Part shown: positions 1,282 through 10,982 of the stretch, piece after piece | Layout: every line of letters begins with the position of its first letter | Position numbering within the stretch: position 1 is the first letter of the stretch | IMG/VR virus record: IMGVR_UViG_2690316115_000019 | DNA length: 11,059 nt | From: a virus | Lineage: Duplodnaviria; Heunggongvirae; Uroviricota; Caudoviricetes | Strand: one strand, 5' to 3' | Translations under genes and position numbers: made by a program | Notes under the pieces: model-generated | Databases searched by the model: none | What the model saw: the letters and a program-made list of their open reading frames with translations, nothing else | What the model was told of the DNA's origin: nothing

Positions 1282-1339
1282 AAAAAGGGCGGCAGAGCAG
1301 TCACGGAGTAGAACTGATACCGCCAAAAGTCACCAGAAA
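1282..1339 (-). ncRNA. dicF: DicF-like small regulatory RNA with 3' intrinsic terminator
   Basis: Reverse complement of 1282-1339 is TTTCTGGTGACTTTTGGCGGTATCAGTTCTACTCCGTGACTGCTCTGCCGCCCTTTTT. This differs at about two positions from the DicF sequence as I recall it and ends in GCCGCCC plus a T-run. Position between a 72-aa gene and dicB matches the Qin dicB operon. Confidence 0.75.
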
Positions 1340-2506: not shown

Positions 2507-2563
2507 ACAATTTACAAATTAAAATTTAACCGGTCAACATGTTTATTATTAAATTTGTAATTG
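2507..2563. promoter_or_regulatory. Operator-like region (OL-like) with half-sites TTACAAAT (2512-2519) and ATTTGTAA (2553-2560), sharing a 14-bp exact match with the immunity-region operators
   Basis: TTAAATTTGTAATT at 2549-2562 is identical to 3791-3804. TTACAAAT at 2512-2519 is identical to 3765-3772. AATTTACAAATT (2509-2520) is itself near-palindromic. It lies upstream of higB and at the head of the leftward dicB-type operon. Confidence 0.45.
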
Positions 2564-2605
2564 CGAGCTGTTGCATCAGTCCCAAAATGGGACTACTATA
2601 CAGTT

Positions 2606-2908
2606 ATGAAGATTATCTCAGTTAAAACACTCAGGGATTTTTGGGCGGAGAATCCTGATGCAGAACAACCGCTAAGGGCATGGGTGGATGAGGCGGCAAA
2701 AGCTGACTGGAAAAGCCCAGCAGACATTAAGGCACAATACCGAACGGCCAGTATATTGAAAAACCGGCGCGTGGTATTCAACATAAAAGGTAATCATTAC
2801 CGTTTAATTGTTGCAATTGCGTATCAGCGAGGATGGGTATTTGTTAAATTCATCGGAAACCACAAGGAATACGATACTATTGATGCTGATACCATCGAAC
2901 TGGAGTAA
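2606..2908 (+). CDS. higB: HigB-family type II toxin (mRNA interferase, RelE/ParE superfamily)
   Basis: 100 aa from ATG 2606. C-terminal pattern FNIKGNHYRLIVAIAYQRGWVFVKFIGNHKEYD resembles E. coli HigB/YgjN (GN..R....V.FIGTHKEYD). It is followed 2 nt later by a HigA-like gene. No clear Shine-Dalgarno, so the start is uncertain (track ORF begins at a TTG at 2561). Confidence 0.75.
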   Translation: MKIISVKTLRDFWAENPDAEQPLRAWVDEAAKADWKSPADIKAQYRTASILKNRRVVFNIKGNHYRLIVAIAYQRGWVFVKFIGNHKEYDTIDADTIELE

Positions 2909-2910
2909 GC

Positions 2911-3270
2911 ATGAACATCAAACCTATTCGTACAGAGCAAGATTATGAAGCCGCGTTGCGTGCTGTTGAACCCATGTTCGACAATGAGCCCGAAATTGAC
3001 ACGCCTGAGGGGGATTTTTTTGAGGTGATGTGTTTGCTAATAGAGGAATATGAAAAAAAACATTATCCCATTGAGCCACCATCCCCAATTGAAGCTATAA
3101 GATTTCGCATGGAACAGCAGGGGCTGACTGTGAAAGATTTGGAACCCGCAATTGGGAAAAAAAATCGGGTTTATGAGGTGTTGAATGGTACCAGAAGCCT
3201 TACGTTACCAATGATTCGCCGTCTTCATAATCAATTTGGTATCCCCCTGGAAAGCCTGGTTGGATTATAA
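2911..3270 (+). CDS. higA: HigA-family antitoxin (XRE-type helix-turn-helix)
   Basis: 119 aa. C-terminal helix-turn-helix segment LTLPMIRRLHNQFGIPLESL resembles E. coli HigA/YgjM (LTLEHAKKLATRFGISPALF). Toxin-first gene order with a 2-nt gap is typical of higBA. Confidence 0.75.
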   Translation: MNIKPIRTEQDYEAALRAVEPMFDNEPEIDTPEGDFFEVMCLLIEEYEKKHYPIEPPSPIEAIRFRMEQQGLTVKDLEPAIGKKNRVYEVLNGTRSLTLPMIRRLHNQFGIPLESLVGL

Positions 3271-3286
3271 AATCTGCTAGTCATTT

Positions 3287-3335
3287 GCCTGATGCTCGTT
3301 CCAGAAAAGGAATGCATCAGGCAGTTTTGTTTTTC
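3287..3335 (+). terminator. Intrinsic terminator after higA; overlaps the 3' end of the convergent repressor gene
   Basis: 9-bp inverted repeat GCCTGATGC (3287-3295) / GCATCAGGC (3313-3321), followed by AGTTTTGTTTTTCT (3322-3335). Confidence 0.55.
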
Positions 3336-3709
3336 TGCCGCAGTAACTCTTCAAGTTTCCGTTTATAGAAATCGCGTTTTTGCTCCATATCACGAATGAT
3401 CTGCTCTGCGTCGCTTTGAGGTAACTCATCTAAAAGCGATATGATTTTTCGTTGTTGTTCTGTAAGTTGCGGTTGGTTGTCATTACTGGATACAGCCATT
3501 TTATCGCCGAGAGTTTCTTCTTCCATAAAGAACCAATGGACGGGATGTTGTGAGAGCTCTGCTAATTTTTCCAGTTTATCCATTCTTGGCATCACGCCTT
3601 TCAACCAACCTTGCACGGATTGGGGTTTTACACCAAGACGTCTTCCCAGCTCTGACTGGTTTATATTCAATTCCTGCAACACCTGCTGAAGGCGTTTTAC
3701 AAAGATCAT
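3317..3709 (-). CDS. DicA/CI-like prophage repressor (N-terminal helix-turn-helix, C-terminal dimerisation-like region)
   Basis: ATG at 3707-3709 with GAGGGG upstream (track ORF starts two GTG codons earlier). Segment NQSELGRRLGVKPQSVQGWLKG is a helix-turn-helix. The C-terminal LTEQQRKIISLLDELPQSDAEQ...KLEELLRQK aligns with the DicA C-terminus as recalled. It is divergent from a Cro-like gene. Confidence 0.75.
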   Translation of the reverse strand: MIFVKRLQQVLQELNINQSELGRRLGVKPQSVQGWLKGVMPRMDKLEKLAELSQHPVHWFFMEEETLGDKMAVSSNDNQPQLTEQQRKIISLLDELPQSDAEQIIRDMEQKRDFYKRKLEELLRQKNKTA

Positions 3710-3763
3710 CACCACCCCTCGTAAACTAGTTCCGCGATCCTACAGAAAAAATTGATAAGTGGC

Positions 3764-3804
3764 ATTACAAATAGAAGTTGAAATTTAAATTTAAATTTGT
3801 AATT
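3764..3804. promoter_or_regulatory. Immunity-region operator/promoter block (OR-like) between the divergent repressor and cro-like genes
   Basis: ATTACAAAT (3764-3772) and ATTTGTAAT (3795-3803) are inverted copies. Tandem AAATTT repeats lie at 3781-3798. A candidate rightward promoter has -35 TTGAAA (3778-3783) and -10 AATTAT (3801-3806) overlapping the right site. GGAGGG precedes the ATG at 3836. Confidence 0.55.
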
Positions 3805-3835
3805 ATCGGTGTCATCGTAAAGTTCGGAGGGAAAC

Positions 3836-4096
3836 ATGCAAAAAAGTACTCAAGTGAAAATCCTGTCAATAATGAGCCAATCAGAATTAGGGCGTCGTCT
3901 TGGTAAAACACCGCAAACCATAAGTGGGTGGTTTAAAAAACGAGTGCCAGCGGAGGAGGTTATACCAGCATGTGAGGCGCTTGACTGGGGAGTAACTCCG
4001 CATGAATTGCGCCCTGATAAATACCCTAATCCAACCGATGGTTTACCTGTTGAGTATCAGGCTAACGCACAAGCAGCGGCGGGAGTTGATTCATGA
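3836..4096 (+). CDS. Cro-like helix-turn-helix regulator of the YdaS/DicC family
   Basis: 86 aa with a GGAGGG RBS. SQSELGRRLGKTPQTISGWFKK...ACEALDWGVTPHELRPD resembles Rac YdaS (recalled). Confidence 0.7.
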   Translation: MQKSTQVKILSIMSQSELGRRLGKTPQTISGWFKKRVPAEEVIPACEALDWGVTPHELRPDKYPNPTDGLPVEYQANAQAAAGVDS

Positions 4097-4518
4097 AAAT
4101 CAAGCATGAACACATCCGCATGGCGATGAATGTCTGGGCGCATCCGGACGGCGAAAAAGTGCCGGCTGCGAAAATTACCAAAGCGTATTTCGAGCTGGGA
4201 ATGACGTTCCCGGAACTGTATGACGACAGCCATCCGGAAGCCCTGGCCCGTAATACCCAGAAAATTTTCCGTTGGCTGGATAAAGACACCCCTGATGCTG
4301 TTGAAAAAATGCAGGCTCTGTTACCGGCGATCGAAAAGGCGATGCCGCCTTTGCTGGTGGCCCGTATGCGCAGCCACAGTTCTGAATATTACCGTGAGAT
4401 CGTCGAACGGAGGGATCGGCTGGTGAAGGATGTCGATGATTTTGTTGCGTCAGCGGTTGTTTTGTATGACCAGATGAATCGCGGCGGCCCGGCAGGGAAT
4501 GCTGTGGTGATGCACTAA
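4093..4518 (+). CDS. YdaT-like protein (CII-like regulator/toxin family of Rac-type prophages)
   Basis: 141 aa. Its start overlaps the upstream stop (ATGA at 4093-4096). N-terminus MKIKHEHI matches my recollection of YdaT. GGGAG RBS. Confidence 0.6.
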   Translation: MKIKHEHIRMAMNVWAHPDGEKVPAAKITKAYFELGMTFPELYDDSHPEALARNTQKIFRWLDKDTPDAVEKMQALLPAIEKAMPPLLVARMRSHSSEYYREIVERRDRLVKDVDDFVASAVVLYDQMNRGGPAGNAVVMH

Positions 4519-7642: not shown

Positions 7643-8329
7643 ATGACCCCAATAAAAATATTTATGACTATTGCTGATTTCAAACGGCCTAAATTGGAGC
7701 TTCCAAACGGGGCAAACAAACTACTACTGCACTCTTGCTGTGCTCCATGTTCCGGTGAAGTGATGGAGGCGCTTCAGGCCTCGGGAATCGACTACACCAT
7801 CTTTTTCTACAACCCGAACATTCATCCTCAGAAAGAGTATTTAATTCGTAAGGATGAAAATATTCGCTTTGCTGAACAACACGGCGTGCCGTTTATCGAT
7901 GCTGATTACGACACCGACAACTGGTTTGAACGTGCCAAAGGAATGGAATGGGAGCCTGAGAGGGGGATCCGTTGTACCATGTGTTTTGACATGCGTTTTG
8001 AGCGGACAGCGTTGTACGCTGCTGAAAATGGTTTCAGTGTGATCAGTAGTTCACTGGGCATTTCACGCTGGAAAAATATGCAGCAGGTTAACGAGTGTGG
8101 GCGGCGAGCTGTTGCGCATTATCCGGGTATGGTGTACTGGGATTATAACTGGCGCAAGCAGGGCGGCTCGTCCCGTATGATTGAAATCAGCAAGCGCGAA
8201 AAATTCTATCAGCAGGAATATTGTGGCTGTGTGTATTCTCTGCGCGATACCAATCTACACCGCAAATCTCAGGGACGCCCTCTTATCAAAATTGGCCAAC
8301 TCCACTACGGAAAAGAAGAGAAGGAGTGA
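7643..8329 (+). CDS. QueH-like (DUF208) protein, putative Fe-S epoxyqueuosine reductase family
   Basis: Motifs [11 protein letters not shown] near the N-terminus, CTMCFD mid-protein and [10 protein letters not shown] near the C-terminus fit DUF208/QueH as I recall it. The start could be ATG 7643 or 7664; neither has a good RBS. Confidence 0.6.
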
Positions 8330-8399
8330 TTTTATGGATCACCTTTCTGATTGATTTCATATTGGCGAGGTGACGTGAGTTAAGTAGAATTGCTGCGGG

Positions 8400-8424
8400 T
8401 GCCTGAGGCTGTCTGCCTCAGGCA
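8400..8424. repeat. Perfect 10-bp inverted repeat (TGCCTGAGGC ... GCCTCAGGCA) with 5-nt loop, between the QueH-like and methyltransferase genes; no T-tract
   Basis: 8400-8409 and 8415-8424 are exact reverse complements. No U-run follows on either strand, so it is not a canonical intrinsic terminator. Confidence 0.5.
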
Positions 8425-8507
8425 TGAACACCAAAAGGCAGATAGAGAAAGCCCCAGTTAACATTACGCGTCCTGTAAGACGCTCAACATTAATCTGAGG
8501 CATATGG

Positions 8508-9632
8508 ATGCGGATGAAAGAATTAAATAAATTCAGAGTGATAGACCTCTTTTGTGGGGCAGGTGGATTATCTTATGGTTTTCTTCATGGAGAGATGTCT
8601 GACTACTTTGAAAGTATCCTTGCTATTGATAATAATGCTGCAGCTATAAATACCTACAATGCCAATTTTGGTTTGCATGGAGTTCAGGCAAATATTGAGG
8701 AGTGGGCATCCAGCAATACTGTTCCTGAGGCTGATGTGGTCATAGGTGGCCCCCCGTGTCAGGGATTCAGTTTATTGAATAAGAATCGTTATGGTGATCA
8801 CCGAAGAGCATTGTGGGAGCCTTATATGGATGTCATTGAGCGTTCAAGGGCTTGTATGTTCGTCATGGAAAATGTCCCCGGATTGCTGATAAGCGATGAG
8901 TTTGCGGACATTACGTTTAGAGCGAAATCCATGGGCTTTATTCTGCTTAATCCAATGGTGTTGAATACTGCTGACTATGGAGTACCTCAGACAAGAAAAC
9001 GAACGATAGCAATCGGTATCAAACGAGAACTCTTCGATGTGCATAGTATTCCGGCGTTCCCGCCAGCACCAACGCATCGTTCCCCTGATAAGGATGTCGC
9101 TTTGCCTGAATGGGTCTGTACGCGTGATGCAATTGGTGACTTACCTGCTCCTGTTGGAACTGATATTCGTAATGAACTTCCTCCGCTGAACTTACATTTT
9201 GGGCGTAATCCCACTCCTGTTTCTCTGGAGCGATATAAAGCGGTTCCACCAGGAGGTAACCGTTTCGATTTACAGAAAAAAAGACCTGATATAACCCCGG
9301 CGTGCTGGCTAAAAAAGAAATCTGGAGGGACCGATTTGTTTGGACGTCTGTGGTGGGACAAACCTTCAGTAACGATTCGTACTGAGTTTTTCAAACCGGA
9401 GAAAGGGCGATATTTACATCCGGAAGAGGATCGGCCAATAACTCATCGTGAGGCAGCGAGATTAATGTCTTTTCCTGATAATTTCATTTTTACCGGTTCA
9501 AAAACTGAGATTGCAAAGCAGATCGGGAATGCTGTTCCACCGCTATTTGCGGCAAAAATCGCACAATATGTGTATGGAGTTTTGCAGGGACGGTATAAGA
9601 ATAACATCAGTAAGAATAGTCAAGCAGCCTGA
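8508..9632 (+). CDS. DNA (cytosine-5)-methyltransferase
   Basis: Motif I DLFCGAGGLSYGF, motif IV GGPPCQGFS, motif VI ENVPGL, motif X QIGNAVPP. GAGG RBS 8 nt before ATG 8508. Confidence 0.9.
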   Translation: MRMKELNKFRVIDLFCGAGGLSYGFLHGEMSDYFESILAIDNNAAAINTYNANFGLHGVQANIEEWASSNTVPEADVVIGGPPCQGFSLLNKNRYGDHRRALWEPYMDVIERSRACMFVMENVPGLLISDEFADITFRAKSMGFILLNPMVLNTADYGVPQTRKRTIAIGIKRELFDVHSIPAFPPAPTHRSPDKDVALPEWVCTRDAIGDLPAPVGTDIRNELPPLNLHFGRNPTPVSLERYKAVPPGGNRFDLQKKRPDITPACWLKKKSGGTDLFGRLWWDKPSVTIRTEFFKPEKGRYLHPEEDRPITHREAARLMSFPDNFIFTGSKTEIAKQIGNAVPPLFAAKIAQYVYGVLQGRYKNNISKNSQAA

Positions 9633-9645
9633 AGGAAATCCAGAA

Positions 9646-10524
9646 ATGAATGGAGATTTGGTTGACAGCATAGTTGGTTTTGCTGAAGCCAGAAAGGAGT
9701 TTCATGCCCAATTGTTACTGAATACGCTCACAATTAATACTGCCGGAGTTGTTAGTAACGCAGATAGCAGTAACAAAAACAGTAAAGCTATAGCAAGAGA
9801 AATTGCTCGCTTCTTGCAGGCTGAAACGATTGGTGAACGTGTTGCAGGGCAAACATCTGGTAATCAGTTTGAGAGTATCTGCGCAGAGTTTATAGAAAAA
9901 ACCTTTTTTAAACTCAGCCACTTACGCCCTGGAAAATGGAATGTACATCAGGTTTCTGGTAGAAACAGATTAGAGATAGCTAAATATGAACAATATGCCC
10001 ATCTTATAGCATTGGATAGTGCTGCAAAAAGTAATCCTCAGCTAGCTGCTGCACTGGGGAGTGATTATACGATTTCACCAGATATTATTGTTGAAAGAGA
10101 ACCTGAATGTGATCAAGTTATCAACAGTCCTGAATTACTGGTGGATGATTCTGTTACCCGCATGTCAGCTCTCAGGAGTTCGAATGGTGGGAAACCAATA
10201 TTACACGCAAGTATTTCCTGCAAATGGACAATAAGAAGCGACCGGGCCCAGAATGCTCGTTCTGAGGCATTAAATCTTATTCGCAACCGTAAGGGAAATC
10301 TCCCTCATGTAATGGTTGTTACTGCTGAGCCTACTCCAAGTCGTCTGGCGTCTATTGCTCTTGGTACTGGTGATATAGATTGCGTGTATCATTTTGCGCT
10401 TTATGAACTTATATCAGCAGTTGAAATACTGGGGCTCAGCGATGCAGCTGACATGCTTTCCGTGATGGTTAATGGTAAAAGATTAAAGGATATTTCTGAT
10501 CTTCCCTTGGATCTTGCAGTCTGA
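9646..10524 (+). CDS. Putative type II restriction endonuclease, Cfr10I/NgoMIV/Bse634I-like active-site arrangement
   Basis: ATG 9646 with GAAGGAAA RBS, 13 nt after the methyltransferase stop. The spacing of putative catalytic residues is PD (SPDIIV), then S-x-K (ISCKW) 45-47 residues later, then E exactly 14 residues after the K (RSEALN), as in Cfr10I-family enzymes (recalled). Gene is AT-rich. Confidence 0.55.
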   Translation: MNGDLVDSIVGFAEARKEFHAQLLLNTLTINTAGVVSNADSSNKNSKAIAREIARFLQAETIGERVAGQTSGNQFESICAEFIEKTFFKLSHLRPGKWNVHQVSGRNRLEIAKYEQYAHLIALDSAAKSNPQLAAALGSDYTISPDIIVEREPECDQVINSPELLVDDSVTRMSALRSSNGGKPILHASISCKWTIRSDRAQNARSEALNLIRNRKGNLPHVMVVTAEPTPSRLASIALGTGDIDCVYHFALYELISAVEILGLSDAADMLSVMVNGKRLKDISDLPLDLAV

Positions 10525-10549
10525 CATCTCTACGTAAATAGAGTCTGTC
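10523..10549 (+). terminator. Imperfect hairpin at the endonuclease stop (possible weak terminator)
   Basis: GACATCTCTA (10523-10532) / TAGAGTCTGTC (10539-10549), followed by ATATTTTAA. Confidence 0.3.
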
Positions 10550-10596
10550 ATATTTTAACTGTGATGGCACGTCATTGACTTCAGTACATTTTTACT

Positions 10597-10622
10597 AACC
10601 CGCTTCGCGGGTTTTGTTTTTT
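10597..10622 (+). terminator. Rho-independent terminator closing the cargo island
   Basis: AACCCGC (10597-10603), loop TTC, GCGGGTT (10607-10613), then TTTTGTTTTTT. Confidence 0.7.
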
Positions 10623-10694
10623 CCTGGCATTCTGGTTTACAATCCACACGCCAGCCTGAACAACTGGCACCTGCTGCGCCAGCAGAGACAACCG

Positions 10695-10982
10695 ATGGCG
10701 CACAATACCAAACACCACAATTCTGATGCCGACCCTGCCAGCAGACACGGACGGCGCTCTCACGCATTCAAATATGACTGGTACCAGCATGACCAATGCA
10801 CTGAAGAACAGGCCGAGTGGCTGATTCAGAATTACCGCAGACGTGGATACCAGTTTCAGAAAGGCCTCAATCCTGACTTCCGACACTGGATAATTTCCGT
10901 CAGGCTCCCTTATTCCGAACGCCCGCCGCGTCCGTCCCGCACATATGTAAGCGTCGTCTCAGCACCGTCTGGCAGATCCTGA
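10695..10982 (+). CDS. Hypothetical basic protein (95 aa), unknown function
   Basis: ATG at 10695 within ORF 10614..10982, whose first codons lie inside the terminator. No strong RBS and no recognised family. Confidence 0.35.
   Translation: MAHNTKHHNSDADPASRHGRRSHAFKYDWYQHDQCTEEQAEWLIQNYRRRGYQFQKGLNPDFRHWIISVRLPYSERPPRPSRTYVSVVSAPSGRS

Follow-up and report, generated by a model that had tools for sequence, protein, structure and literature searches.

The DNA examined here, 11,059 nt of the IMG/VR virus record IMGVR_UViG_2690316115_000019 (this whole stretch is called the window), corresponds to the early-right region of a lambdoid Escherichia coli prophage. It contains two adjacent, co-oriented genes encoding a C5 cytosine DNA methyltransferase (M) and an NgoMIV-family type II restriction endonuclease (R). 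The two genes are framed by parts of a hok locus, the promoter and the 5' part of the hok mRNA leader upstream and the hok terminator downstream (Table 1). Comparison with intact loci shows that a 2.1-kb restriction-modification (R-M) cassette has taken, with precise borders, the place of the mok and hok coding sequences in a hok/sok locus of a prophage. Very probably the outcome is a functional type II R-M operon without a controller (C) protein, directed at GCCGGC and residing as a moron in the hok position of the prophage.

The product of the first gene matches Pfam PF00145 (DNA_methylase, 4e-54) and TIGR00675 (dcm, 5e-45) as well as the PADLOC defence profiles MTase_II (9e-88) and DruM (2e-90). 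All six diagnostic C5 motifs (I, IV, VI, VIII, IX and X) are complete and stand in canonical order. By its profiles and motifs, the open reading frame (ORF) 8508/8514-9632 is a C5 cytosine methyltransferase. RefSeq starts the gene at 8514, giving 372 aa; this ATG lies 13 nt past the Shine-Dalgarno (SD) sequence of mok, and the ATG at 8508 lies 7 nt past it. The true start is uncertain because the codon at 8508 is GTG in the allele of E. coli A34.

M ends with the TGA at 9630-9632 and the next ATG, that of R, is at 9646. R matches the Pfam family NgoMIV_restric (PF09015) over profile positions 1-275 of 275 (6e-127; 423 bits, cut-off 23.2), the only family to which Pfam assigns it, and the PADLOC profile REase_II (8e-126). 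A search of the PDB at E<=1 returned NgoMIV as the sole match (1FIU/4ABT, 1e-118), with 185 of 281 residues identical (66%) over the full length. At this identity to a solved structure, R is by alignment a full-length NgoMIV-family endonuclease whose fold is beyond doubt. Its active site reads P145-D146, 46 residues, S191-C-K193, 13 residues, E207; these spacings fit the permuted catalytic signature of the CCGG family, PD-X46-53-K-X13-E (PMC3413111). A first, sequence-only reading of the window had proposed a complete type II R-M system on the strength of methyltransferase motifs it called unambiguous, a 13-nt gap (9633-9645) and a PD...SxK...E arrangement with Cfr10I-like spacing, and had made the endonuclease assignment depend on a PD-(D/E)xK fold and on the methyltransferase not being an orphan. 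All of this is borne out: M has all its motifs, R is full length, the fold is that of NgoMIV, and the pair is conserved intact under purifying selection (see below). Of its label 'Cfr10I/NgoMIV-like', the CCGG family and NgoMIV stand and Cfr10I falls.

Table 1. Features of the R-M unit, sequence motifs of M, a box of related loci and the surrounding genes (positions in the window unless another locus or M residues are named)
Feature	Position	Strand	Basis and remarks
Sigma-70-type promoter of former hok gene, TTGGCG-17 nt-TAGAAT	8362-8390	+	promoter scan, 9/12 matches
5' part of hok mRNA leader	8397-8501	+	Rfam RF01794 model positions 1-88 of 157
C5 cytosine DNA methyltransferase (M)	8508-9632	+	374 aa; ORF call
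M motif I, FCGAGG	M residues 15-20		
M motif IV, GPPCQGFS	M residues 81-88		Cys84
M motif VI, ENV	M residues 121-123		
M motif VIII, QTRKR	M residues 161-165		
M motif IX, REAARLMSFPD	M residues 314-324		
M motif X, GNAVPP	M residues 340-345		
M-R spacer, AGGAAATCCAGAA	9633-9645	+	13 nt; opens with AGGA ribosome-binding site for R
NgoMIV-family type II restriction endonuclease (R)	9646-10524	+	292 aa; predicted G^CCGGC
Cassette-specific 3' untranslated tail	10525-10595	+	71 nt; comparison, origin not matched
Intrinsic terminator of former hok locus, AACCCGCTTCGCGGGTT + T-run	10597-10625	+	terminator scan; 7-bp stem, 5 GC pairs
Upstream box TGGGxxTTTATACAGCxTxAAxATATGxTAAATT	L004 4806-4850; L007 4241-4285; L008 4805-4850		extended -10-like
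DicF RNA	1287-1338	-	Rfam RF00039, 71.5 bits, full length
HigB-like RelE-family toxin	2561-2908	+	Pfam HigB_toxin, 8e-33
HTH_3 antitoxin-like protein	2911-3270	+	Pfam; 3' of HigB-like gene
Divergent helix-turn-helix (HTH) repressor (repressor/Cro-like pair) with YdaS/YdaT-like pair	3317-4518		Pfam
Replication-organiser-like HTH protein, DnaC/IstB-like ATPase, DUF1627, DUF977	upstream of M		Pfam
QueH, epoxyqueuosine reductase	7643-8329	+	Pfam, 1e-65

Upstream of M, the Rfam model RF01794, which is named 'sok' and which we take to cover, in sense orientation, the hok mRNA leader as far as the hok AUG, is placed at 8397-8577 with 61 bits (gathering score 59), the alignment being convincing for model positions 1-88 only; intact hok loci score 113-115 bits. 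The retained leader ends with the SD of mok (GAGG, 8497-8500), and the promoter ends 6 nt 5' of the model start at 8397. Upstream of mokW/hok in phage HannyBb and of hokD in an E. coli S88 prophage, the leaders match the block 8332-8501 with 93-94% identity, a homology that ends at 8501/8502. Backbone homology with hok-bearing prophages restarts at 10596, which corresponds to position 2501 of the S88 locus, just past hokD and the fbi-like sequence. The break points are thus 287 bp apart in S88 and 2094 bp apart in the window (8502-10595), where they enclose M, R and the 71-nt tail. The 287-bp segment of S88 holds the mok and hok frames and, on reading its sequence, also the promoter of sok and an fbi-like stretch complementary to the 5' end. 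The ORF search of the operon region found no Hok-like ORF, the promoter scan predicted no minus-strand promoter near 8500-8600, and the tail in the window contains no fbi-like complement of the leader 5' end. On the minus strand of 8397-8501 lies the body of sok, the antisense gene; its promoter was probably lost, as the break position and the lack of a minus-strand promoter match suggest.

A hok leader is therefore present, and toxin frames, sok promoter and fbi are not, so that by its content the locus is not a hok/sok system. Lambdoid hok/sok loci of the hokW/mokW and hokD types share with the window unit the promoter, the first ~105 nt of the leader with the SD of mok, the terminator and the position in the prophage, upstream of DUF968, RusA and antiterminator genes. 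They differ from it in having the mok/hok frames, the sok promoter and the fbi element where the window has M and R. Control by Sok in cis was judged unlikely, since the sok promoter and the region complementary to the 5' tail lie, in the S88 sequence, within the replaced segment. The promoter at 8362-8390 now likely drives the R-M operon, and the terminator, from its position, now ends it.

The absence of a controller gene, claimed in the sequence-only reading, was upheld, with the refinement that the operon is fused to a captured hok promoter and leader. The ORF list shows no small HTH-type controller ORF in 8330-8507, 9633-9645 or 10525-10694, and M has no N-terminal HTH extension, motif I beginning at residue 15. 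With no such ORF beside the operon, classification as a C-protein-controlled system was rejected. In other R-M systems, C proteins give an establishment delay.

The unit was traced in 5426 complete E. coli genomes with a cassette-only query (8515-10590). It is present in exactly 60 of them, each time full length, in single copy, on the chromosome and with at least 97.4% identity; carriers include many O157:H7 isolates, O103, O111 and E110019. In the 30 of the 60 carriers that were listed, both coding sequences are annotated as intact, under the RefSeq names 'DNA cytosine methyltransferase' and 'NgoMIV family type II restriction endonuclease'. No remnant consisting of M or R alone was found among the 5426 genomes. 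The same pair in the order M-R, 13-14 nt apart, occurs in chromosomes of Cronobacter and Pantoea and in another lambdoid contig (L007). Compared with the 97%-identical allele of E. coli A34, M has a ratio of nonsynonymous to synonymous substitution rates (dN/dS) of 0.14 and R one of 0.10; compared with the 79%-identical copy of L007, both genes have 0.04. Adjacent, co-oriented and co-conserved, M and R form an operon of a presumably cognate pair, and the substitution ratios show purifying selection on both, that is, maintenance of the pair. More widely, R homologues with 58-79% identity are present on 17 plasmids, and in a one-genome-per-species collection more than 590 stretches from many phyla encode a relative of R. 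The pair as such is already annotated in RefSeq and is not a discovery; it is an unremarkable, uncharacterised case of a known family in an uncommon genomic setting.

In E. coli A34, homology to the window spans only 8385-10615 (-10 box, leader, M, R and terminator), and both flanks are unrelated. The different upstream flank of A34 shows, on reading of its sequence, a TTGGCA-17-TAGAAT promoter. From these boundaries, the chimeric unit is one that moves as a block between lambdoid prophages. The tail 10525-10595 was found in 59 E. coli genomes (matches covering at least 80% of the query 10525-10760) and in A34; it has no match in the sequence 3' of R in loci L007, L004 and L008. The leader block on its own is present in 3921 of the 5426 genomes, and O157:H7 carriers hold 4-6 further leader copies. 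The copies of Cronobacter, Pantoea and L007 are without the hok leader. They have in common an upstream box, TTTATACAGC...ATATGATAAATT, which is absent from the window and was probably the original promoter of the cassette. In all three Pantoea loci (L008 6952-7749, L009 2724-3521, L010 2719-3516) R is followed by a conserved 265-aa ORF without a Pfam match, which the E. coli, Cronobacter and L007 versions lack.

Concerning the specificity of R, we compared the DNA-contact residues named in PMC2532715, PMC3413111 and PMC5389614. The active site of NgoMIV consists of E70, D140, K187 and E201 (PMC2532715), and S185 occupies the place of the usual acidic residue. The segment RSDR reads the CCGG core (PMC3413111, PMC2532715); the outer G:C pair is read by D34 and R227 in the major groove and by Q63 in the minor groove (PMC5389614, PMC3413111). 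In the alignment, R retains the catalytic residues (E76 for E70, P145-D146 for P139-D140, S191 for S185, K193 for K187, E207 for E201) and the DNA contacts (R197-S-D-R200 for RSDR191-194, Q69 for Q63, D40 for D34, R233 for R227). The catalytic residues, the RSDR segment and the equivalents of D34, R227 and Q63 are invariant across 12 homologues from several genera. Because the base-contacting residues of NgoMIV that were compared are all kept, the prediction that R cuts G^CCGGC rather than the degenerate site of Cfr10I is well founded. Where the sequence-only reading had implied a CCGG core and called the specificity unknown, the core holds and the full site can be predicted as GCCGGC. NgoMIV works as a homotetramer and cuts the two target sites it has bound simultaneously (PMC5389614), and by analogy R may likewise be a homotetramer with type IIF two-site cleavage at G^CCGGC.

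R.NgoMIV of Neisseria gonorrhoeae (type IIF, G^CCGGC; PDB 1FIU/4ABT) resembles R in size (286 vs 292 aa), in the permuted PD...SxK...E site, in the RSDR motif and in the contacts to the outer G:C pair, and the two systems share the gene order M then R. They differ in that the gonococcal R start abuts the M stop (3988/3989) whereas the window has a 13-nt spacer with a ribosome-binding site, and in setting, the gonococcal chromosome versus a prophage hok locus. Cfr10I and Bse634I (R^CCGGY, type IIF) have the CCGG-family fold class and the PD-X46-53-K-X13-E arrangement in common with R. Bse634I reads the outer base pair through Asn73 and Pro203 only (PMC3413111), in contrast to D34 and R227 of NgoMIV and their equivalents in R. 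Membership of R in the Cfr10I/Bse634I group was ruled out, since neither enzyme matched in the PDB at E<=1 and Pfam gives NgoMIV_restric only.

M belongs to a different lineage from M.NgoMIV. In N. gonorrhoeae (L058), the gene upstream of R encodes a 312-aa C5 methyltransferase, M.NgoMIV, to which the 374-aa M of the window is 22% identical, the identity being limited to the common catalytic motifs; orthology was rejected on this value. When M was used as query against 80 loci of R homologues from other species, 58 gave no match at E<=1e-10 and the others reached about 25-35% identity. In both inspected loci, those of N. gonorrhoeae (L058) and Halopseudomonas (L011), a short M.NgoMIV-type methyltransferase (312-337 aa) lies 5' of R. 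In Halopseudomonas formosensis, a small ORF with a GCFWHGH motif, by eye like that of Vsr mismatch endonucleases, follows M and R (L011 4889-5245). The window cassette is without a Vsr-like repair gene, and deamination of 5-methylcytosine (5mC) would therefore go uncorrected unless the host Vsr covers the sites.

M itself has many relatives with 65-80% identity, mainly in Gammaproteobacteria. In the three genera checked (Yersinia, Edwardsiella and Idiomarina; 73-76% overall identity), its neighbour is an HNH protein of about 325 aa and not an NgoMIV-type nuclease. The target-recognition region (M residues 186-300) is 72-78% identical to that of the HNH-partnered enzymes and as conserved as the catalytic core, which suggests that all of them methylate the same site. 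An attempt to read the site of M from its relatives gave no answer, since the HNH neighbours match no named family: Pfam, NCBIfam, PADLOC, the PDB and a plasmid tblastn matched their HNH domain only (McrA-like, IscB-like). In these neighbourhoods, the NgoMIV nuclease family works with methyltransferases of two lineages, and the lineage of M with nucleases of two folds. Partner exchange of this modular kind is familiar from R-M systems.

The HNH partner (about 325 aa; L092 5088-6068, L094 5105-6073) consists of a winged-helix region and a C-terminal HNH domain and resembles only the HNH domains of McrA (6GHC, 7.5e-8) and IscB. It may represent an uncharacterised family of type II restriction enzymes sharing the methylation site of M. 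In a P2-like prophage of Yersinia kristensenii (L091 2472-6092), a 76%-identical M homologue paired with an HNH nuclease has as neighbours a HicB antitoxin and a PvuRts1I-like/SRA protein that may be a modification-dependent nuclease. This group of genes sits between the phage GPA replication gene and the portal/terminase genes, and the region looks like a small defence cluster in another type of phage.

The sequence-only reading had pointed to one GCCGGC (4161-4166) and several RCCGGY sites elsewhere in the window; there are 1 and 8, respectively, against chance expectations of 2.6 +/- 1.7 and 8.8. In a 42-kb carrier locus, 13 GCCGGC sites compare with 15.2 expected. The depletion of the predicted motif that the same reading had proposed to look for was found neither in the window nor in the carrier locus, which bear no selection footprint. 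Lack of avoidance is expected for self-methylated DNA and is evidence neither way. The GCCGGC sites of the E110019 carrier prophage are, with one exception, in the late (lysis/head) half (L001 28473-42271 vs 7325-28472), and the 21-kb early region with the R-M genes has none. This bias may be a composition effect, the total count not being unusual.

Taken as a functional operon, the unit would be a moron, a set of additional genes that brings its own promoter and terminator, in the early-right region. Its transcript would start from the hok promoter (8362-8390), carry the 105 nt of hok leader first, use or abut the SD of mok and end at the hok terminator. M would come first behind a constitutive-type promoter and R second with its own AGGA ribosome-binding site. 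M would mark host and prophage DNA at or around GCCGGC, a specificity suggested by its obligatory protecting role. R, acting like NgoMIV as a homotetramer, would bind two GCCGGC sites and cut G^CCGGC in unmethylated incoming DNA. The need for enzyme build-up and for two unmodified sites might provide an establishment delay in place of a C protein. The lysogen would be defended against superinfecting phage and plasmid DNA, and loss of the prophage would be penalised as with other type II R-M pairs, a role that hok/sok has at the same spot. Both hok/sok and R-M modules can act as post-segregational killers. As to the history, a promoterless M-R segment was presumably joined once to a hok locus, and the fusion would have been viable because hok promoter and SD give expression in the lysogen. 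Most likely it then spread among lambdoid prophages via recombination through leader and terminator, which are probable homology arms because they are common to the hok loci of most lambdoid prophages.

Several observations weigh against a functional GCCGGC-directed operon. The 9/12 promoter match is a consensus match only and no commoner than in shuffled sequence. The leader RNA folds more stably than shuffles (z = -3.2), and the fold partly pairs the start region of M. With 22% identity to M.NgoMIV, M has no characterised relative from which to read its site, and the HNH nucleases beside the three relatives checked (73-76% identity) offer no site to read either. By DNA, the cassette was not found in sequenced free phages, where one distant protein match (56%) was obtained. 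GCCGGC is not depleted, and the carrier prophages may be defective.

Among the alternatives, the one that fares best, and which we nevertheless consider unlikely, holds that the hok leader is a mere recombination scar without a part in expression or control, the R-M genes being read from an internal promoter that escaped recognition or by read-through of early (pR-type) phage transcription. The cassette does lie in the early-right operon, 3' of the replication genes and QueH, its promoter is of a quality met equally often in shuffles, and the sok promoter and fbi element, which make the hok leader regulatory, are gone. However, the early operon is silent in a repressed lysogen, yet continuous M is needed to survive R. 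Moreover, the mobile unit starts exactly at the -10 box (8385), both flanks rebuild TTGGCx-17-TAGAAT, and the break point sets the ATG of M 7 nt past the SD of mok. It is a speculative idea, to which we give little credence, that the leader is a working control, with expression from the hok promoter, translation set by leader folding, Sok RNAs of sibling prophages perhaps modulating it, and portable arms. If true, a type II R-M system would be coupled to type I antitoxin RNAs, and through the leader and terminator arms the R-M unit could take the place of hok in whichever lambdoid prophage it meets.

It is also improbable that the system is active with a specificity other than GCCGGC, R accepting RCCGGY or M having a broader or different site (CCGG, RCCGGY). 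The likeness to Cfr10I drawn in the sequence-only reading would be in line with this, as would the lack of relationship between M and M.NgoMIV; since the target-recognition region of M is so similar to that of enzymes partnering a different nuclease, the site of M may exceed that of R. Against a relaxed R speak the conserved contacts to the outer pair (D34, R227 and Q63 of NgoMIV), invariant in the family alignment, and the PDB search at E<=1, which gave NgoMIV and neither Cfr10I nor Bse634I. A broader M would still protect GCCGGC, which changes a detail and not the mechanism. That the pair is a decayed or silent relic, with R or both genes inactive or unexpressed in lysogens, would fit the degraded state of some carriers (integrase and portal frameshifts and an internal stop in the terminase in E110019), the lack of GCCGGC avoidance, the loss of the promoter box of other genera and the leader structure partly covering the start of M, but it is very improbable given two full-length ORFs with every catalytic residue, 60 of 60 full-length carriers with both coding sequences intact in the 30 listed, dN/dS values that are as low as 0.10-0.14 even for the closest pair of E. 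coli alleles and so indicate ongoing purifying selection on both genes, and a consensus-like promoter retained in two different flanking contexts. We therefore retain the functional, C-protein-less operon directed at GCCGGC.

The prophage setting surmised in the sequence-only reading is confirmed by lambdoid markers upstream (DicF, the repressor/Cro-like pair, replication genes and QueH) and by the location of the region inside annotated lambdoid prophages, which are the closest matches among complete E. coli genomes. DicF is an antisense small RNA that also occurs in Qin/Rac-type prophages, and it marks the left part of the window as the dicB/dicF immunity-side region. The HigB/HigA-like pair is a type II toxin-antitoxin system in the same prophage as the R-M unit; with the hok-derived R-M unit, two potential addiction modules lie on one element. 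The gene directly 5' of the leader and R-M unit encodes QueH, a tRNA-modification enzyme unexpected in a phage early region; it is 93% conserved in phage HannyBb, where it is called 'hypothetical'. The carrier prophages are integrated at tRNA-Ser/mtfA in E110019 and at yccA in fS25a, and their gene order continues with DUF968, RusA, an antiterminator-region protein, lysis genes and head genes. The prophage of E110019 is degraded, with integrase and portal frameshifted and the terminase disrupted by a frameshift or internal stop.

Phage-borne type II R-M morons include the PstI-like system that E. coli O104:H4 has on its Stx2 prophage. There, too, both genes of a type II R-M system are found together in a lambdoid prophage of a pathogenic E. 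coli, where they are expected to methylate the genome of the host and to restrict DNA that enters; enzyme families and target site differ from those of the window pair. To our knowledge, replacement of a hok locus has not been described for such morons, and the literature searched contained no prior description of the present system, of its hok-locus replacement or of its M lineage. The replacement of hok and the methyltransferase unrelated to M.NgoMIV are new, modestly interesting refinements. About 1% of complete E. coli genomes, including a clade of O157:H7 and other Shiga-toxin-associated serogroups, carry the cassette. The DNA of these carriers is predicted to be resistant to NgoMIV/NaeI and 5mC-modified at GCCGGC, and the cassette should bar incoming phage and plasmid DNA. 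In recipient strains, the methylation may bring conflict with McrBC or McrA, both methyl-dependent nucleases. The overwriting of hok/sok by an R-M unit would mean that one post-segregational killing module was replaced by another, which reuses promoter, leader, ribosome-binding site and terminator. Together with the two lineages of M, this swap would provide a compact natural example of modular exchange, in which genes for addiction and defence replace one another at one fixed moron site of prophages.

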